A stretch of DNA of 64,000 nt from an uncultured Poribacteria bacterium (GTDB lineage Bacteria > Poribacteria > WGA-4E > WGA-3G): the NCBI GenBank assembly GCA_951813565.1, contig OX638351.1, forward strand, positions 4,096,001 to 4,160,000, given 5' to 3'. The number at the start of each line of letters is the position of its first letter. The first letter of the stretch is position 1. Shown in pieces: positions 36,001-48,000 of this stretch. A program made the position numbers.

Positions 36001-39000
36001 CTTTCTGCACTGGTGGTGGGGGTGGCGGACCCGAAACCCGTAAACCCGAAGCAAATTGGCGGTTTAATAAAGCGAAGGGTGGCGGTAGTATTTACGATTT
36101 GGCGTGTTACAATATCCACCATGCACGGTTTATGTTCGGTGCTGAACCGATTCGGGTGTCGGGCGCGTCTCAAGCAGGATTGGAAGTTGATGATGCTTCC
36201 TACCTACTCTTAGTATTCCCCGATGAAAAAACTGCCCAGATTTCTACCGGTTTCAATTGTGCTGGTGGTCAGTATGCCGAAATGACAGGGTTAGGGGGCA
36301 TGCTTCGAATTGATGCCGCATGGAATAATGGCGGTTCTCCTGTTAATATTGTTCTGCAGAACAGGGATGGTCGTGAAGTAATTGATATTGATCCTGTTAA
36401 TCAGTTTGCATTGCAGCTTGAGCACATGTGCGAATGTTTGAAAACAGGACAACCGCACCGCATCTCACCCGAAAGCTGCATAAATCAGATGCGCGTTATT
36501 GATGCTGCTTTTGAGGCTATGGCAACTGGTCGAACGGTTGAATTAGGATAACAAATTTAAATGGCAATCGGCTTTCAGTCTTCGGCTATCAGCAGAAATG
36601 GCTATAGACTGACAACTATTATTCTAACTGCTGATGGCTGATGGCTGACTGCTGTTATGCTGGCAACTATTATGGCAAATCTTGCTGAAACGAAAGCACT
36701 TACCTTCGACCTATTCGGAACAATTTTAGATTTAGGCGGCAGTCTTACACCTTTCATCCGTGAATCTTTAGATGCCCACGATGCTTCCGATATATTTGCG
36801 GGTGATTTTTGGGAACAGTGGCGCTACAGGCAACGGATTGAGCAGTATCAGGACACAATCATGATGCTTGGGCATAGCGGCTACCTGGAAACGGTGCGCC
36901 GTGCATTGCACTACACGCTCAGACGAAACGGCATAAATGCTTCAAGTGCTACAGTTGAAGCATTTATGCAAGGGTGGCATCACTTGTCTCCCTTTCCAGA
37001 AGTTTTACCTGCGCTTGAACGACTACAATCTCGGTATCAATTAGTGGTATTGTCCAACGGGGATCCAGAGTTTTTAGAATACCTTGTTACAGAAAGGGTT
37101 GCATGGGATTTTGACGATGTTATCTCTGTTACATCTGTGGGGGCATTTAAACCGCATCCAGCGGTCTATCGTGGTGCTGCAGGAAAACTGGGTCTTGAAG
37201 TTAGTGAGTGCCTAATGGTATCCGCGAACTCATTTGACATTATGGGTGCGCGGGCGTGTGGATATCGGGGTGCGTTTGTCAATCGTTACAACTTACCTTA
37301 TGAGGATACGCAATTTCAACCTGATGTGACTGTGAACGATTTTACGGAATTGGCAGACGCTTTGTTATAGTCACATTCATTTCTGCTATTTAGTGCTATC
37401 TGAAGTGGTGATGTTCCATAGGAGTATCGTTCCATCCGCACTTCCACTCACGAGCGTCCTACCATCCGTATTGAATGTGATACTATTGACATCTCCTGTA
37501 TGTTCCTTGAAGATCCGAATGTGTTTACCTGTAGCGACATCCCACAGGCGGATAGTATTGTCCGCACTACCACTTGCGATTGTTTTTCCATCCGGACTAA
37601 ACGCTACGCTTTTGACATCACCCGTATGTCCTTTGAGTGCCTGCTTTTGTTCACCTGTGCCTATATCCCATAAACGGATAGCGTAATCTGCCCAACCTTC
37701 ACCACTTGCAAATGTTTTACCGTCAGGACTGAACGCAATACAAGTAACATTTCTTGTATGACCTGTCAGTAGTGCTATTTCTTTATAGGTTGCCGTATCA
37801 TAAAGCCAAATACTGATTGAGCTTGCGACCGCGAAGTGTTTGCCATCTGGGGAATATTGTATCTGACTGATATAGCCTTTACCTAACCTTGCTGTGGCAC
37901 CTTCAGGTAAACTGAATTGCGGAGAATCTTGTGCAAAAACGTTCGGAAGATATAATATTGAGAGGATATACAATATTGAGAAAATGATAAATGATCGGTT
38001 TTTCATGCGGATTTCTTATTTTTACTGTGATTGATTGTAATACGCAGCATGTATCGATTAATGTGTGCATCTTCTGTTTTATAGTATTTCACAAAGATGA
38101 TGAAATGTCAACATTCACTTAAACAAAACAGGGTTATTTATAGTGAACTTATTTACATAATTTACTATAAAATGTGAAAATATAGCCGAAAAATAGAAAA
38201 CTGAATAACCCTGAAACAGAAAAGAGGGCAGACCGTATGCCTACCCTCAATAAATCTAAATATTATTTCTTTATCAACATCTTTTGTGTGGCTGTGAATT
38301 TTCCTGCTGTTAGCGTGTAGAAATAGACACCACTTGCAACTGACTCACCGATCTCGTTTTTGCCGTCCCAGTACGCTGTGCTACCTTTGTGTTGGTAAAG
38401 TCCTGCCGATTGATGTCCTAAAACTAATGTTCGAATCAGTTTAGCATCTGAAGAATGTATCTGGATTAATACATCGGCGGATTCTGCCAACTGATACGGT
38501 ATCCAAGTTTCCGGGTTGAAGGGGTTTGGATAATTAGGCAATAGAACAGTCTTTTTCGGTGTCAATGCTACCAACAACTTTTCAAGGAAACGGATACCTT
38601 TTTGTGATGTTGCATCCATCAGGTCAACCTGCTGTGCTTGTATCAACCATTTTTGCACATCGGCTCTTGTAAACGCGAACTTTAAGTCACGACCTAATCC
38701 TAAAGGTGCAGCGGCTGCATCATCTATCGCACCTGCAACCTTAATAAGATCGGCAATATTAACGACACCATCACCATTCACATCTGCAGGATTTGGACCT
38801 GTTTGCCCGAAGTTTGCGGCAACAACAACTAAATCGTTAACATCAATAACTCCATCACCATTTATATCTGCTTCATGTCGCGTAGGGTTGAATAAGGCAG
38901 CGAAATCCCACAATAGTATTATTCCTGTATCGACCGATAGTGCAAGCGTCTTACCATCGGGGCTAATTGTAAGGTTATAAAAACCTTCTGGTATACCCCT

Positions 39001-45000: not shown

Positions 45001-48000
45001 ATATTAAGTGAGAACGTAAGCTGCCCATCTATAGCAGGAGACTGCAGAGAAGGTGGAGATAGACTTACAGTCGCATAAGTGTTGGTTGGGGGTGTAAAAT
45101 TCCATAGGAGCGTTGTGCCATCTGAGCTGCTACTGGCAAGCGTCCTTGCATCCGGACTGAACGCTATGTCAAGGATGCCGCCTGTATGCCCAGAAAACGT
45201 TTGTATATGCTGACCAGATACCGTATCCCATAAACGGATAGTACGATCGCCGCCAGCACTGGCAAGTGTTTCACCATCGTTACTAAAAGCGACGCTCCAG
45301 ACTAAATCCGTATGTTCAGTAAAATTCTGGAGTTCTACGCCAAAGACAATATCCCATATTCGGACAGTATTATCGTCACTACCGCTGGCAAGCATGTCGC
45401 CATTTGGACTAAAAGCGACGCTCCTCACGAAATCCGTATGCCCAATAAGTGTTTGCTGGGGTTCACCGGAAGCGGTATCCCATAATATGATAGTGTCATC
45501 TGCGCTACCACTTGCAATCGTCTCTCCATCTTCACTGAAAGCAACGCTTAGTACCGCATTTGTGTGTTCATCGAATGTTCTCAGTTCTTCTGCAAGAGCA
45601 GTATCCCATAATTTGATAGTACCGTCTTCACTACCGCTCACAATCTTGGACCCGTCAGGACTGAAGGCAATGCTCCAAACCCAATCTTCGTGTCCAATAA
45701 GCGTGTCAATGTGTTCACCGGTAAAGGCATTCCATAACCGGATAGTCCCATCGTCACTACCACTTGCCAGTGTGTTTCCATCAGGACTGAAGGCAATGCT
45801 CCATATCCAATCCTCATGTCCTATTAACATCTGTTGGTGTTGCCCTGTGGTAGCATCCCATAGATTAATCGTATTATCTGCACCACCTGTTGCTACTACG
45901 TTTCCATTAATGTTGAAGCCAACACTTAAAATATAATTTGTATATCCAGTAAGTACCTGTCGCTGTCCTCCAAAGACAGGATCCCACAACCGAACAGTCC
46001 CATCGGCACTGCCACTTGCAAGCGTTCCTCCACTTGAATTGAACGCTACACTTAAAACAACATTTGTATGTCCAGGGAGTTCCTGCTGAGGTTGCCCAGT
46101 AACAGCATCCCACAAAAGGATAGTCCCATCGGCACTGCCACTTGCAAGCGTATTTCCATTTGGACTATATGCCACACTATAGACGGTACCCAGATGTCCG
46201 GGTAGAGTCTGCTTTGATACACCGAAGGCAGTATACCAAAGTCTTACAGTACCATCTCGACTGCCACTTGCGAGTGTTCCTTCATTTGGACTGAACGCTA
46301 CACTGTAAACAGAATCTTCATGCCCGGTCAGGATGTGTTGTTGTTCACCAGTTGCAACATCCCACAGTTGGACAGACCCGTCTAAACTGCCACTTGCGAG
46401 CGTTTCTCCACTCGTACTAAAAGCAACGCTCGTAACAGCATCAAAATGTCCGGGAAGTGTCTGCAGATTTTCACGAGTAATATAATTCCAAAGTTGGATT
46501 GTGCTGCCACCATGGCCACTGGCAAGTGTTTGACCATCTGAACTAAATGCCAAACTCAAGACTACGTCTGTGGGGCCTGTAAGATCCTCTTGATGTTCGC
46601 CAGTTGTTGCATTCCAGAGTTTAATTGTTCCATCATCATGGCCACTGGCAAGTGTCTGACCATCCGAACTAAATGCAGCACAGTAAACAGTCTGTGTATC
46701 TTCAGTGAGCAATCTTATTTCTTCATAGGTTTGTGCATTATAGAGCCAAATACCGATGGAACTGACTACCGCCAAACGTGTGCCATCTCGCGAATATGTA
46801 AGCTCAGCTATCCTTCCCTTTCCGAGACGCGCTTTCGCGTTGTCGGGTAAACTAAATTGTGAGGCGGTTTGAGCAAAGGTTTCGGTAAGAAAAAATGACA
46901 AAACAAGAAGTTGGGTAAAAAAAATAAAAAATAACGTCTTTTTCATTGTAGTATTCTCCTTTTGAAGGTAATTGGCTGCTATATGTTGCATGCAAACAAT
47001 TTGATTGATGTCTTTTTCTAAAGTATACCACAAAGACGGTGAGAATGCAATTTTACGTGGGAATGGGTGTAGGTTAGAATATTGGTAGGCATCAAATTAC
47101 TACAGTCTATCTCATAAATTGTTAAATACGGTTCCTTACACAGGATCTACATTCATCGTAGGGGCGGGTCCCCGGTGAATGCCAAAAGGCATTCGGACCG
47201 TTGATTTGGTGCCCGCCCATTGTTTACACTTATGAGAGAGATGGCGAGGCACAGAGACCTCGCCCTACAAATGATTTATGAGATACGCTCTAATGCTTTG
47301 GCTGCTTGATTTTGGTTTTTGTCAGTGTGATAAGAGTTTATGACCAGACAAACACTTCGTTATCATCTGGGGAATATCCGATGAATACAGCCAAAACAAT
47401 TCTTGCACGTGTGCCCTGAACAGCTGGTACTTCGTGGATGCAACGGGTGTTGAAAAAGTATAGGTCCCCTTGTTCCAAATTGACCTGACAGTTTTCTATT
47501 CTGTTCTCGGCTGCGTAGCTATCAAACGTTTCTGCTGCAATATGTGGTTGAACGTCTTCAGACCAAAGGCATCGGTGTAGGATAGCTTGTGTTCCTTTTC
47601 CGGTTGCATCCGCATTTTGCACACACAACACACCTGCAAACTGATGTTCAAAGCGATAAACAGCGTAATCGGCCCGTTGTTCACGATATTTGACACTGTC
47701 AATGTGCGGTTTATAACTATGTGTTTCGTAGTGAACGCGGAAGATAGCTGGACCATAAAGTGACCCGTCAGGTTCACGCGCGACTTTAACCTCTTTTCCG
47801 GGAGAAAGCGCAGCAAGAGTGTCATAAATCAAGTCAACAGGGTTTTTGAAGCCATCAAATAAGAATTGAAATAGATGATGCGTTGCTTCAGCATGTGCTA
47901 AAAAACGGGTTTTTTCGCTACCACGATTACCAAGACTCGTGCCGATGTCGATACGGGTACGTTTGTCGGCAGAGTTGATGTCCGCTTCGTCTCGCATCAG

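Follow-up and report, generated by a model that had tools for sequence, protein, structure and literature searches.

Organization of the WD40 gene array

We analyzed a 64,000-nucleotide stretch of contig OX638351.1 of an uncultured Poribacteria bacterium (the window; positions are counted from its first letter). On the minus strand, positions 38263 to 47033 hold an array encoding three paralogous secreted WD40 proteins, P1, P2, and P3, with a truncated fourth, P4 (Table 1). The open reading frames (ORFs) span 38263 to 40920 (P1), 40826 to 43408 (P2), and 44058 to 47033 (P3); signal peptides, called by visual inspection and a hydrophobicity script, lie directly downstream of positions 40815 and 46946, the likely true starts of P1 and P3, respectively. 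Because P1 starts 10 nt after the P2 stop codon, P1 and P2 probably form one operon. P4 is 48.5% identical to the N terminus of P3.

Matches to the Pfam WD40 family were strong in all three proteins (E = 1e-79, 5e-84, and 4e-159 in P1, P2, and P3, respectively). When the C-terminal parts were scanned alone, Dockerin_1 scored 26.7, 34.1, and 34.0 bits in P1, P2, and P3 (Pfam cut-off, 22.9), FlgD_ig 31.9, 34.3, and 40.0 bits (cut-off, 27), and the NCBIfam type A sorting domain for type IX secretion systems (T9SS), TIGR04183, 30.4, 39.3, and 34.2 bits (cut-off, 23), whereas Cohesin was found in P3 only (30.8 bits; Pfam cut-off, 24.1). The three proteins share a tail composed of a dockerin, a two-helix module that we named X, and a type A T9SS C-terminal domain (CTD), and in P3, the upstream member, a cohesin immediately precedes the dockerin. 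The genes of this small tandem array belong to a single Poribacteria-wide family of Sec-exported, eukaryote-like repeat proteins, represented here by double WD40 propellers.

Table 1. Features of the WD40 array (window positions)
Feature	Position	Strand	Description
P3	44058..46946	-	Signal peptide, ~14 WD40 blades, Cohesin-Dockerin-X-CTD; 962 aa from ATG at 46946; open frame up to 47033
P3 cohesin	44682..45086	-	Pfam Cohesin 30.8 bits; own profile 189 bits; AF2 pLDDT >90; Foldseek TM 0.7-0.81
P3 dockerin	44520..44672	-	Two Ca-loop + helix repeats; Pfam Dockerin_1 34.0 bits; match to PDB 2y3n_B
P3 X module	44334..44468	-	Two-helix hairpin, without Pfam family
P3 type A T9SS CTD	44061..44333	-	TIGR04183 34.2 bits (cut-off 23); Pfam Por_Secre_tail 30.7 (cut-off 27); AF2 beta sandwich
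P2	40826..43408 (start codon approximate)	-	Signal peptide, WD40 propellers, Dockerin 41282-41434, X 41102-41236, CTD 40829-41101
P1	38263..40815	-	Signal peptide, WD40 propellers, Dockerin 38722-38871, X 38539-38673, CTD 38266-38538
Terminator-like hairpin and T run	38224..38248	-	Immediately 3' of P1 stop codon; consensus scan only
P4	37386..38006	-	206 aa, signal peptide, ~4 WD40 blades, without dockerin, X, or CTD

Fold of the cohesin and dockerin modules

In an AF2 model of the P3 cassette (mean pLDDT, 82), the cohesin (residues 20 to 151; pLDDT > 90) adopts the canonical beta-sandwich jelly-roll fold of cohesins, and Foldseek aligned it to solved cohesins with TM scores of 0.7 to 0.81 (0.80 for 2xdh and 0.76 for 1ohz_A; 2vn5_A was also matched). 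A search of the PDB with the cassette profile matched solved dockerins and cohesins at E values of about 1e-12 (1.7e-12 for dockerin 2y3n_B). An alignment of 25 dockerins showed residues D10, D14, G15, D21, D39, N41, D43, and D50 to be invariant and N12 and G44 to be nearly so, with the Asp, Asn, and Gly positions of the calcium loops kept in both repeats; the dockerin helices were modeled at residues 168 to 176 and 196 to 208 of the P3 cassette. Judged by these sequence features, the dockerins have the type I form (PF00404), in which each of two duplicated segments has a calcium-binding loop (D-x-N-x-D-G...D) and then a helix.

A C-terminal cassette shared by unrelated proteins

Searching the genome, a single contig of 5.43 Mb, we found Cohesin above the Pfam cut-off at 6 places (28 to 63 bits), Dockerin_1 at 27 places (28 with our own dockerin profile), and TIGR04183 in 31 ORFs. 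The initial annotation had counted 25 dockerins and only 4 cohesins, overlooking an N-terminal Cohesin-Spondin_N-CTD protein and a WD40-Cohesin protein. Its cluster of three WD40 dockerin-CTD proteins, one with a cohesin, was borne out by our domain scans at 38263 to 47033, and elsewhere we recovered its LRR-Cohesin-Dockerin-CTD (1725 aa), WD40-Cohesin-Dockerin-CTD, Cohesin-Dockerin, FG-GAP/ASPIC-Dockerin-CTD, LRR-GHL15-Dockerin (two genes), Dockerin-Cu2_monoox_C, and Reeler...Dockerin proteins. Two sulfatases do carry a dockerin, with a CTD on both instead of on one, and the DUF6259-Dockerin proteins number four, not three, one of them falling below the DUF6259 cut-off (27.3 versus 28.7 bits). 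Overall, the dockerin-bearing proteins of this genome contain WD40, LRR, LDL-B, FG-GAP, sulfatase, GHL15, DUF6259, or Cu-monooxygenase domains or form an Ig-array giant. Sixteen dockerins lie on proteins with neither CTD nor cohesin, most intact ones of which have signal peptides.

The main new result is that, on sequence evidence, (Cohesin)-Dockerin-X-CTD is a fixed C-terminal cassette shuffled as a unit onto many unrelated cargo domains. This genome holds 11 copies, 8 of them without cohesin, and in 11 of 11 X is flanked by the dockerin and the CTD. The cargo comprises WD40, LRR, LDL-B, and FG-GAP repeats, sulfatases, and peptidases, and the genes often stand in tandem arrays. Cassette ORFs at 74 loci of other genomes included 45 of the Doc-X-CTD and 32 of the Coh-Doc-X-CTD form and a few multi-module forms. 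The Doc-X-CTD profile matched 61/61 sampled Poribacteria genomes, and X was found in at least 718 representative protein clusters (50% identity) at E ≤ 1e-10, ending about 88 aa from the C terminus among the matches listed and checked. With the Coh-Doc-X-CTD query, 7,768 of 8,000 scored candidates matched, with cargo that included WD40, beta-helix, reprolysin-like, NPCBM, LRR, cadherin, and LDL-B domains. Cohesin itself occurs in 174 of 176 Poribacteria genomes and in 30 of 31 genera, in line with the phylum-wide spread (170 of 175 genomes) described earlier.

Two further arrangements concern how the modules are distributed between proteins. In relatives, some proteins contain two or three cohesins (for example, Doc-Coh-Coh-Coh-Doc-X-CTD), and frames with two cohesins were seen directly in genomes of the phylum. 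In addition, a Cohesin-Spondin_N-CTD gene is followed by that of a Reeler...Dockerin giant (~1,700 aa, without CTD) in this genome and in 7/7 congeners fetched, the giant's dockerin being seen in 6 of those 7.

Possible linkage in trans or a rigid stalk in cis

The reading that we favor, to which we give about an even chance, is that the cassette proteins are displayed on the cell surface through a divergent T9SS-like export route and are cross-linked in trans by cohesin-dockerin pairs. The CTD would move the proteins, already folded, across the outer membrane via an apparatus made up of an SprA-like pore, a PorV-like shuttle, and a PorU-like C25 peptidase, after which the proteins would stay anchored at the cell surface. 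Dockerins and cohesins, positioned close to the membrane, would there bind each other in trans in a Ca2+-dependent manner, such that the P3 cohesin might capture the dockerin of P1, of P2, of another P3, or of a CTD-less dockerin protein. Proteins with both modules would form head-to-tail links, those with a dockerin alone would end a chain, and those with a cohesin alone would start one. The expected product is a coat in which repeat proteins and sulfatases are cross-linked and turned toward the sponge matrix, and not a cellulosome-type enzyme scaffold. Signal peptides, a cohesin of predicted canonical fold, two-repeat dockerins with calcium-binding motifs, a conserved X, a type A CTD, and the presence of the cassette on unrelated cargo are what the sequences themselves support. 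Pairing in trans is supported by the multi-cohesin proteins of relatives, the conserved anchor and cargo gene pair, and the fixed cassette, with the self-binding Amy4 of Ruminococcus bromii (see below) as a precedent. Weighing against a network, the genome has only 6 cohesins, none of these in tandem, for 28 dockerins.

As a rule, the unit consists of a single cohesin and, a few residues away on the same polypeptide, a single dockerin; the gap between matches to our own profiles has a median of 3 residues (range, 0 to 15; 100 cassettes). Units of this kind could polymerize in head-to-tail fashion or be nothing more than a rigid stalk. In the latter case, the cohesin and its neighboring dockerin would pack together, or the dockerin would serve as a Ca2+-stiffened spacer, and, with X included, the result would be a rigid membrane-proximal stalk keeping the cargo at a distance from the cell surface, with no network between proteins. 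We consider this account rather improbable. Besides the short gap, the inheritance of the cassette as a unit and the cohesin-less cassettes (8 here and 45 in related loci) speak for it, as does the AF2 model, in which order extends over the cohesin-dockerin junction (pLDDT, 83) but not over the Doc-X and X-CTD linkers, although a short ordered junction fits a rigid cis unit and a trans linker equally well. It is harder to reconcile with proteins that have two or three cohesins and one or two dockerins, which cannot be satisfied in cis, with the 16 dockerins on proteins lacking both CTD and cohesin, and with the cohesin-only anchor gene beside a dockerin-only giant in all 7 congeners; moreover, given the short linker, it is doubtful that a dockerin would reach the canonical binding face of its own cohesin. 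Counting against the trans reading, distances between cassettes revealed no cohesin-dockerin co-variation above that expected from shared descent (Spearman coefficients of 0.83 for cohesin-dockerin and 0.82 for cohesin-X).

Candidate T9SS components and possible surface display

The type A CTD is genuine, with TIGR04183 scoring above its cut-off at the extreme C terminus of the signal-peptide proteins P1 to P3; we infer T9SS-dependent anchoring of the cassette proteins. In the whole genome, no T9SS component reached its NCBIfam equivalog cut-off. A PorV-like protein scored 98.7 bits (NCBIfam cut-off, 250), exceeded the Pfam PorV cut-off (50 versus 27 bits), and matched solved PorV 6h3i_F (E = 2.5e-13). 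A PorU-like protein scored 300 bits (NCBIfam cut-off, 420) and has a full Peptidase_C25 domain (298 bits). Three giants combine a full-length Peptidase_C25 with their own CTD, and one of these is followed by a PorV-clan barrel gene. Within the window, a PorP/SprF-like gene above the Pfam cut-off adjoins a CTD-protein gene. An ORF of 2,167 aa matched SprA weakly, in five colinear segments scoring from 61.5 down to 20.8 bits (cut-off, 200), and is very divergent, without a phmmer match to any solved structure. Profiles for GldL, GldM, and GldN matched neither this genome nor any control genome, including a Rhodothermaceae-labeled metagenome-assembled genome (MAG) meant as a positive control, so that the sensitivity of these scans is unproven and the silence of the GldM test proves little. 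Candidates for GldK were rejected as ordinary FGE-sulfatase enzymes.

These results bear on a second alternative, namely, that the CTD-like domain is handled by another pathway or does no more than fold into a terminal Ig-like domain, in which case the proteins would either be released or remain periplasmic, and any cohesin-dockerin contacts would be made there or in the sponge matrix. The sub-threshold SprA-, PorU-, and PorV-like matches and the undetected GldKLMN equivalents fit this alternative. It also agrees with reviews that, in the portions available, describe the T9SS as confined to the Bacteroidota or the FCB group and with the accessible parts of Kamke et al. (2014; PMC3909097), where no Por structural genes are reported in Poribacteria. 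The 31 ORFs with TIGR04183 above the cut-off, the PorV-like protein, the C25 peptidases with a CTD, the PorP/SprF-like gene, and the silent positive control argue against it, and we regard it as unlikely, slightly more so than the stalk.

Counting against the favored reading, 16 dockerin proteins lack a CTD and, with it, an evident route across the outer membrane. That the cohesin-CTD proteins bind them in the periplasm and carry them piggy-back, in folded form, through the T9SS-like pore would suit their signal peptides and the conserved gene pair in which the cohesin-CTD protein is encoded immediately upstream of the CTD-less giant, but seems very improbable, since three tandem secretin genes in the genome could serve a type II-like route, a protein of ~1,700 aa would be a poor passenger, and we know of no precedent for piggy-back secretion of this kind.

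Comparison with known systems

The modules resemble those of the clostridial cellulosome (type I; 1ohz) in the cohesin fold (TM, 0.76 to 1ohz_A), in the two-repeat calcium-binding dockerin, and in the C-terminal position of the dockerin on some enzymes. In contrast, the host is diderm, repeat proteins and sulfatases make up most of the cargo, and cohesin and dockerin are neighbors within a single polypeptide that continues with X and a T9SS CTD. A scan of the whole genome with our own profile found no ORF with more than one cohesin and hence no cellulosome-type scaffoldin; nor did we find an SLH or sortase anchor on these proteins or, when this genome's cohesin proteins were scanned against Pfam, any CBM family. 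The hallmarks of a cellulosome, dockerins mainly on plant-cell-wall carbohydrate-active enzymes and a CBM on the scaffoldin, were not found here. The cohesin of Archaeoglobus fulgidus (2xdh) is among the closest solved folds (TM, 0.80) and likewise comes from outside a cellulolytic setting, although its host is archaeal and it has no sorting domain. In A. fulgidus, the cohesin and the dockerin belong to the same protein. From Bacteroidota T9SS type A cargo (gingipains; SprA-PorV, 6h3i), with which they share a CTD above the TIGR04183 cut-off and a genome encoding PorV-, PorU/C25-, and PorP-like proteins, the cassette proteins differ in the undetected GldK/L/M/N equivalents, the very divergent SprA-like protein, and a phylum outside the groups with a described T9SS.

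Amy4 of Ruminococcus bromii, according to the available text of PMC4611034, also has a cohesin and a dockerin in one polypeptide and binds its own dockerin experimentally, which is taken to give multimers; it is, however, a single enzyme of a Gram-positive host, without CTD or X, whereas the cassette is phylum wide. For "Ca. Stygibacter" (Cloacimonadota), a 2021 study of MAGs proposed, in the parts accessible, dockerin-tagged enzymes and a multi-cohesin scaffoldin anchored by a T9SS-type CTD (PMC8542988). That scaffoldin is one protein of 3,755 aa with tandem cohesins and CBMs, whereas the cassette described here joins one cohesin and one dockerin to X and occurs in dozens of different proteins per genome (11 cassettes in this one). 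The poribacterial repeat proteins (WD40, LRR, and others) bearing a Por CTD/TIGR04183 that the accessible sections of Kamke et al. (2014; PMC3909097) describe are the same proteins as those studied here. As far as these texts go, CTD-anchored cohesins (2021) and Poribacteria WD40 proteins with a Por CTD (2014) were therefore already in print, and the novelty claimed in the initial annotation was too strong. Of its self-linking, T9SS-anchored scaffold, the modules, signal peptides, type A CTD, and phylum-wide spread stand; a multi-cohesin scaffoldin was not found in this genome, and GldL, GldM, and GldN were not detected.

A possible surface coat of Poribacteria

Taken to its full extent, the favored reading leads to a more tentative picture, possible but less probable than trans linkage as such. 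Poribacteria would wear a self-assembling coat of eukaryote-like repeat proteins and sulfatases, all of them exported by a T9SS-like route without the known GldKLMN motor and cross-linked at the membrane by the cohesin-dockerin pair of the (Cohesin)n-Dockerin-X-CTD cassette; split proteins of eukaryotic type, the reeler giant and the spondin anchor among them, would be rejoined at the surface by the same clip. If this is true, the coat would be the interface of these bacteria that is seen by the sponge host.

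A WD40 cluster with cohesin, dockerin and sorting modules

The window holds three paralogous secreted proteins (P1 to P3) that are pairwise 36 to 39% identical over almost their whole length and in which WD40 repeats make up most of the chain by Pfam; judging from the length of the repeat region, each would have about 14 blades, probably forming two propellers. P3 and P2 are 649 bp apart, and a truncated fourth paralogue (P4) has a signal peptide and N-terminal motif as in P1 to P3 and nothing beyond its WD40 blades. When the C-terminal parts were scanned alone, Dockerin_1 and FlgD_ig were above the cut-off in P1, P2 and P3, and Cohesin in P3 only. 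The NCBIfam model TIGR04183 (T9SS type A sorting domain) was likewise above the cut-off in P1, P2 and P3.

Rfam gave no match in the 64-kb window, and promoter-like sites in the WD40 cluster were not above chance (31 observed versus 24.6 +/- 5.5 expected). When RNA sequencing runs were sought, none identified as RNA came up; six sequencing runs of unstated kind from two studies contained 92 to 99% of the sampled words, and a seventh contained a small share. A WelO5-like halogenase/dioxygenase gene and three PhyH-family dioxygenase genes lie on either side of the cluster.

Coordinates of the features discussed (W, position in the window; G, whole-contig position in the source genome, G000:C1)
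Feature	Frame	Coordinates	Strand	Remarks
P1 ORF	W	38263-40920	-	likely start 40815, before a typical signal peptide ending ..FAQ or ..FSQ
P2 ORF	W	40826-43408	-	stop 10 nt before P1 start
P3 ORF	W	44058-47033	-	likely start 46946, before a typical signal peptide ending ..FAQ or ..FSQ
P4, fourth paralogue	W	37386-38006		206 aa, about 4 WD40 blades
Terminator-like hairpin	W	38224-38248		after P1
Halogenase/dioxygenase and PhyH-family genes	W	47338-49079	-	
Halogenase/dioxygenase and PhyH-family genes	W	52554-54311	+	
PorP/SprF-like gene with fn3-CTD neighbour	W	15133-17502	+	
CTD protein with ~230-aa pre-CTD region	W	29390-32068	-	892 aa
Cohesin-Spondin_N-CTD anchor and Reeler-Ig array-Dockerin giant (loci L008 and L009)	G	492709-500690	-	
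Cohesin-Spondin_N-CTD anchor gene	G	497883-500690		
Tandem sulfatases (loci L030 and L031)	G	5312086-5316287	-	
Three tandem secretin genes	G	3373080-3380259	+	about 1006-1012 aa each
PD40/TolB-like propeller genes	G	near 2019693-2022021, 4557962-4561952, 1980825-1984385		
IS605 OrfB/TnpB-type gene	G	3270073-3271722	+	

A fixed C-terminal cassette in the genome

All Pfam and NCBIfam matches of the 5.43-Mb single-contig genome were placed on open frames. Genome-wide, 11 dockerins had a C-terminal sorting domain (CTD) 62 to 79 residues downstream, and alignment of these 11 tails exposed a conserved helical module between dockerin and CTD, termed X, for which no Pfam family was found at E<=1 except for a weak GA_3 match in P2 (E 0.004, below cut-off). 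When our own profile of each of the four modules was used, the genome contained three Coh-Doc-X-CTD, eight Doc-X-CTD, one Coh...CTD and one Coh-Doc protein, one protein with a cohesin at its end, 16 dockerin-only proteins (one dockerin N-terminal, nearly all others at or near the C terminus) and 19 CTD-only proteins. The initial annotation had placed cohesin and dockerin modules on T9SS-type surface proteins; this was confirmed, its count of 25 dockerins and four cohesins being slightly low against the 28 and six found here.

In this genome, every X was preceded by a dockerin and followed by a CTD, and nearly all CTD-only proteins were without X ahead of the CTD. The cargo of the cassette comprised WD40, LRR, LDL-receptor class B repeats, FG-GAP/ASPIC and two sulfatases. 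These tandem sulfatases have, by eye, a twin-arginine-type signal together with a C-terminal Dockerin-X-CTD; if that signal holds, Tat export would be followed by T9SS-type sorting. In an alignment of 25 dockerins of this genome (A2), five, from LRR and LRR-GHL15 proteins and one DUF6259 protein, are identical in their second repeat and have a short linker between the repeats, and two further dockerins are one residue off that common second repeat. This pattern suggests a single specificity group that has spread through recent duplication. In the window, an 892-aa CTD protein shares 48% identity with a Cohesin-Spondin_N-CTD protein over a pre-CTD region of about 230 aa; this region matched no Pfam family, occurs hundreds of times in relatives and seems to form another type of stalk ahead of the CTD, in addition to Doc-X.

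Compared with solved structures, the cassette profile matched dockerin 2y3n_B (E 1.7e-12) and cohesin 3l8q_A (E 1.9e-12). The last 360 residues of P3 were modelled with AF2 from a 28-row alignment (mean pLDDT 82.3, pTM 0.55); the model had a cohesin sandwich at residues 20-151 (pLDDT above 90), an ordered cohesin-dockerin junction (pLDDT 83), dockerin helices at 168-176 and 196-208, a disordered Ala/Pro linker at 210-220, a two-helix hairpin at 227-261 and, after a disordered stretch at 265-277, a C-terminal beta sandwich. The modelled cohesin part matched solved cohesins with TM 0.7-0.81 (Foldseek).

Distribution of the cassette across relatives

Among genome contigs, 69 of the 74 best loci for the cassette profile were titled Poribacteria; of the remaining five, four were records of an 'uncultured bacterium' and one was a 5-kb contig assigned to a Rhodothermaceae bin. 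Cohesin was present in 174/176 Poribacteria genomes, often with at least about 21 per genome, and the Doc-X-CTD profile, whose per-genome match counts take in CTD-only matches, matched all 61 sampled genomes (14/14 genera). A search of 1.84 billion representative clusters with X alone gave 1270 matching clusters at E<=1e-3, of which 718 also passed E<=1e-10; where listed matches were checked, X ended about 88 residues from the C terminus. With the Coh-Doc-X-CTD part of P3 as query, 7768 matching proteins were found among 8000 scored candidates, and most of the best 120 of these shared 45 to 68% identity over the full cassette and had very different N-terminal domains. More than one cassette gene was present in 23 of the 74 related loci, with runs of five to ten or more in relatives; because several cassette genes so often lie together, the WD40 cluster in the window represents a common gene arrangement on a small scale.

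Evidence on possible cohesin-dockerin pairing

Several observations make binding of a cohesin to a dockerin of another protein (in trans) plausible. Some proteins of relatives combine two or three complete cohesins with no more than one or two dockerins (e.g., Doc-Coh-Coh-Coh-Doc-X-CTD), two-cohesin frames being independently present in genomes of the phylum, and in the genome studied here 16 dockerin proteins have neither cohesin nor CTD, and two cohesin proteins lack a dockerin. Trans pairing is further favored by a conserved gene pair, in which the gene of a Cohesin-Spondin_N-CTD anchor lies 75 bp upstream of that of a giant protein (1699 aa) in which a Reeler domain and an Ig-like array are combined with a dockerin at the C terminus. 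This adjacency was found in 7/7 congeneric genomes fetched, with the dockerin of the giant seen in 6/7; in two genomes less closely related, no such pair was seen. Reeler and Spondin_N domains co-occur in animal F-spondin. Here, these two F-spondin-type domains are divided between a cohesin protein and a dockerin protein, and the proposed cohesin-dockerin contact (the clip) would therefore re-join them.

Speaking against such a network, the cohesin and the dockerin within a cassette lie only a few residues apart (median of 3 residues between own-profile matches) and were modelled as one ordered unit in P3, and comparison of distance matrices gave no signal of cohesin-dockerin co-variation distinguishable from shared descent. 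A complex prediction of the P3 cohesin, the P2 dockerin and two Ca, with no control predictions beside it, scored 0.17 versus a mark of 0.32 and is counted neither for nor against trans pairing. For trans pairing as head-to-tail chaining, Ruminococcus bromii Amy4 provides an experimental precedent (PMC4611034).

Sorting route

The CTD is, judged by its sequence, a bona fide type-A domain. One PorV-like barrel was above the Pfam cut-off and matched solved PorV, other such barrels being borderline. Three giants (1754-2194 aa) each have a Peptidase_C25 domain, a propeptide and a CTD of their own; the peptidase domain was full-length by Pfam in both of the three that were scanned, and one giant is followed by a PorV-clan barrel. 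A PorP/SprF-like gene in the window (Pfam 25.7 bits versus a cut-off of 22.3) immediately precedes a gene for an fn3 protein with a TIGR04183 CTD, an arrangement like that of PorP-cargo gene pairs in T9SS organisms. A 2167-aa ORF had five colinear weak SprA matches and no sequence match to any solved structure.

GldL, GldM and GldN had no match in the genome; the GldM search also matched none of five further genomes, among them a Rhodothermaceae-labelled MAG meant as positive control, so that its negative outcome here carries little information. The GldK matches were FGE-sulfatase enzymes, and a gldKLMN-like operon at the best of them was rejected, the gene encoding a plain FGE-sulfatase enzyme with unrelated neighbors. 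The secretion machinery is only half visible, the same impasse as that met by Kamke et al. 2014 (PMC3909097) from single-cell genomes.

PD40/TolB-like propeller genes recur beside the SprA-like gene, a PorV-like gene and a PorU-like gene and may encode unrecognised accessory parts of the sorting system. Three tandem secretins (Pfam Secretin, 119-124 bits) are another possible route for proteins without a CTD. The best PorV-like gene adjoins an IS605 OrfB/TnpB-type gene with Cas12f1-like TNB, HTH_OrfB and OrfB_IS605 domains.

Discussion

Poribacteria WD40 and other repeat proteins with a Por CTD were described by Kamke et al. 2014 (PMC3909097), who stated that their secretion pathway 'remains to be revealed'. 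Elsewhere, a CTD-anchored multi-cohesin scaffoldin with dockerin enzymes has been proposed in a Cloacimonadota genus (PMC8542988), and cellulosome-affiliated enzymes are mentioned in Latescibacteria (PMC7081726). Our search, which covered literature other than Kamke et al. 2013, found no paper linking Poribacteria to cohesin or dockerin, and searches on Poribacteria with cellulosome or T9SS and on sponge symbionts with dockerin and cohesin found nothing relevant beyond Kamke et al. 2014. Some of these proteins are already named 'cohesin domain-containing protein' in databases. The apparent novelty lies in the fixed [Cohesin]n-Dockerin-X-CTD cassette, the scale on which it occurs and the split reeler/spondin pair that is conserved among relatives.

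The initial annotation had proposed a cellulosome-like, T9SS-anchored scaffold. A cohesin-dockerin system on T9SS-type cargo is retained from that proposal; it is non-cellulosomal, and a phylum-wide display cassette describes it better than a cellulosome does. Cohesin-dockerin biology is extended to non-cellulolytic diderms, and the findings point to a T9SS-like system outside the FCB group, where its motor was not found. The cassette suggests itself as a candidate for surface-display engineering, and X together with the CTD subtype provides a sequence handle with which the whole surface proteome of a Poribacteria genome can be listed. No genomic hallmark of sponge symbionts is better known than their eukaryote-like repeat proteins; a phylum-wide cassette that couples a sorting signal to a protein-protein clip offers a concrete, testable model of how these proteins are displayed.
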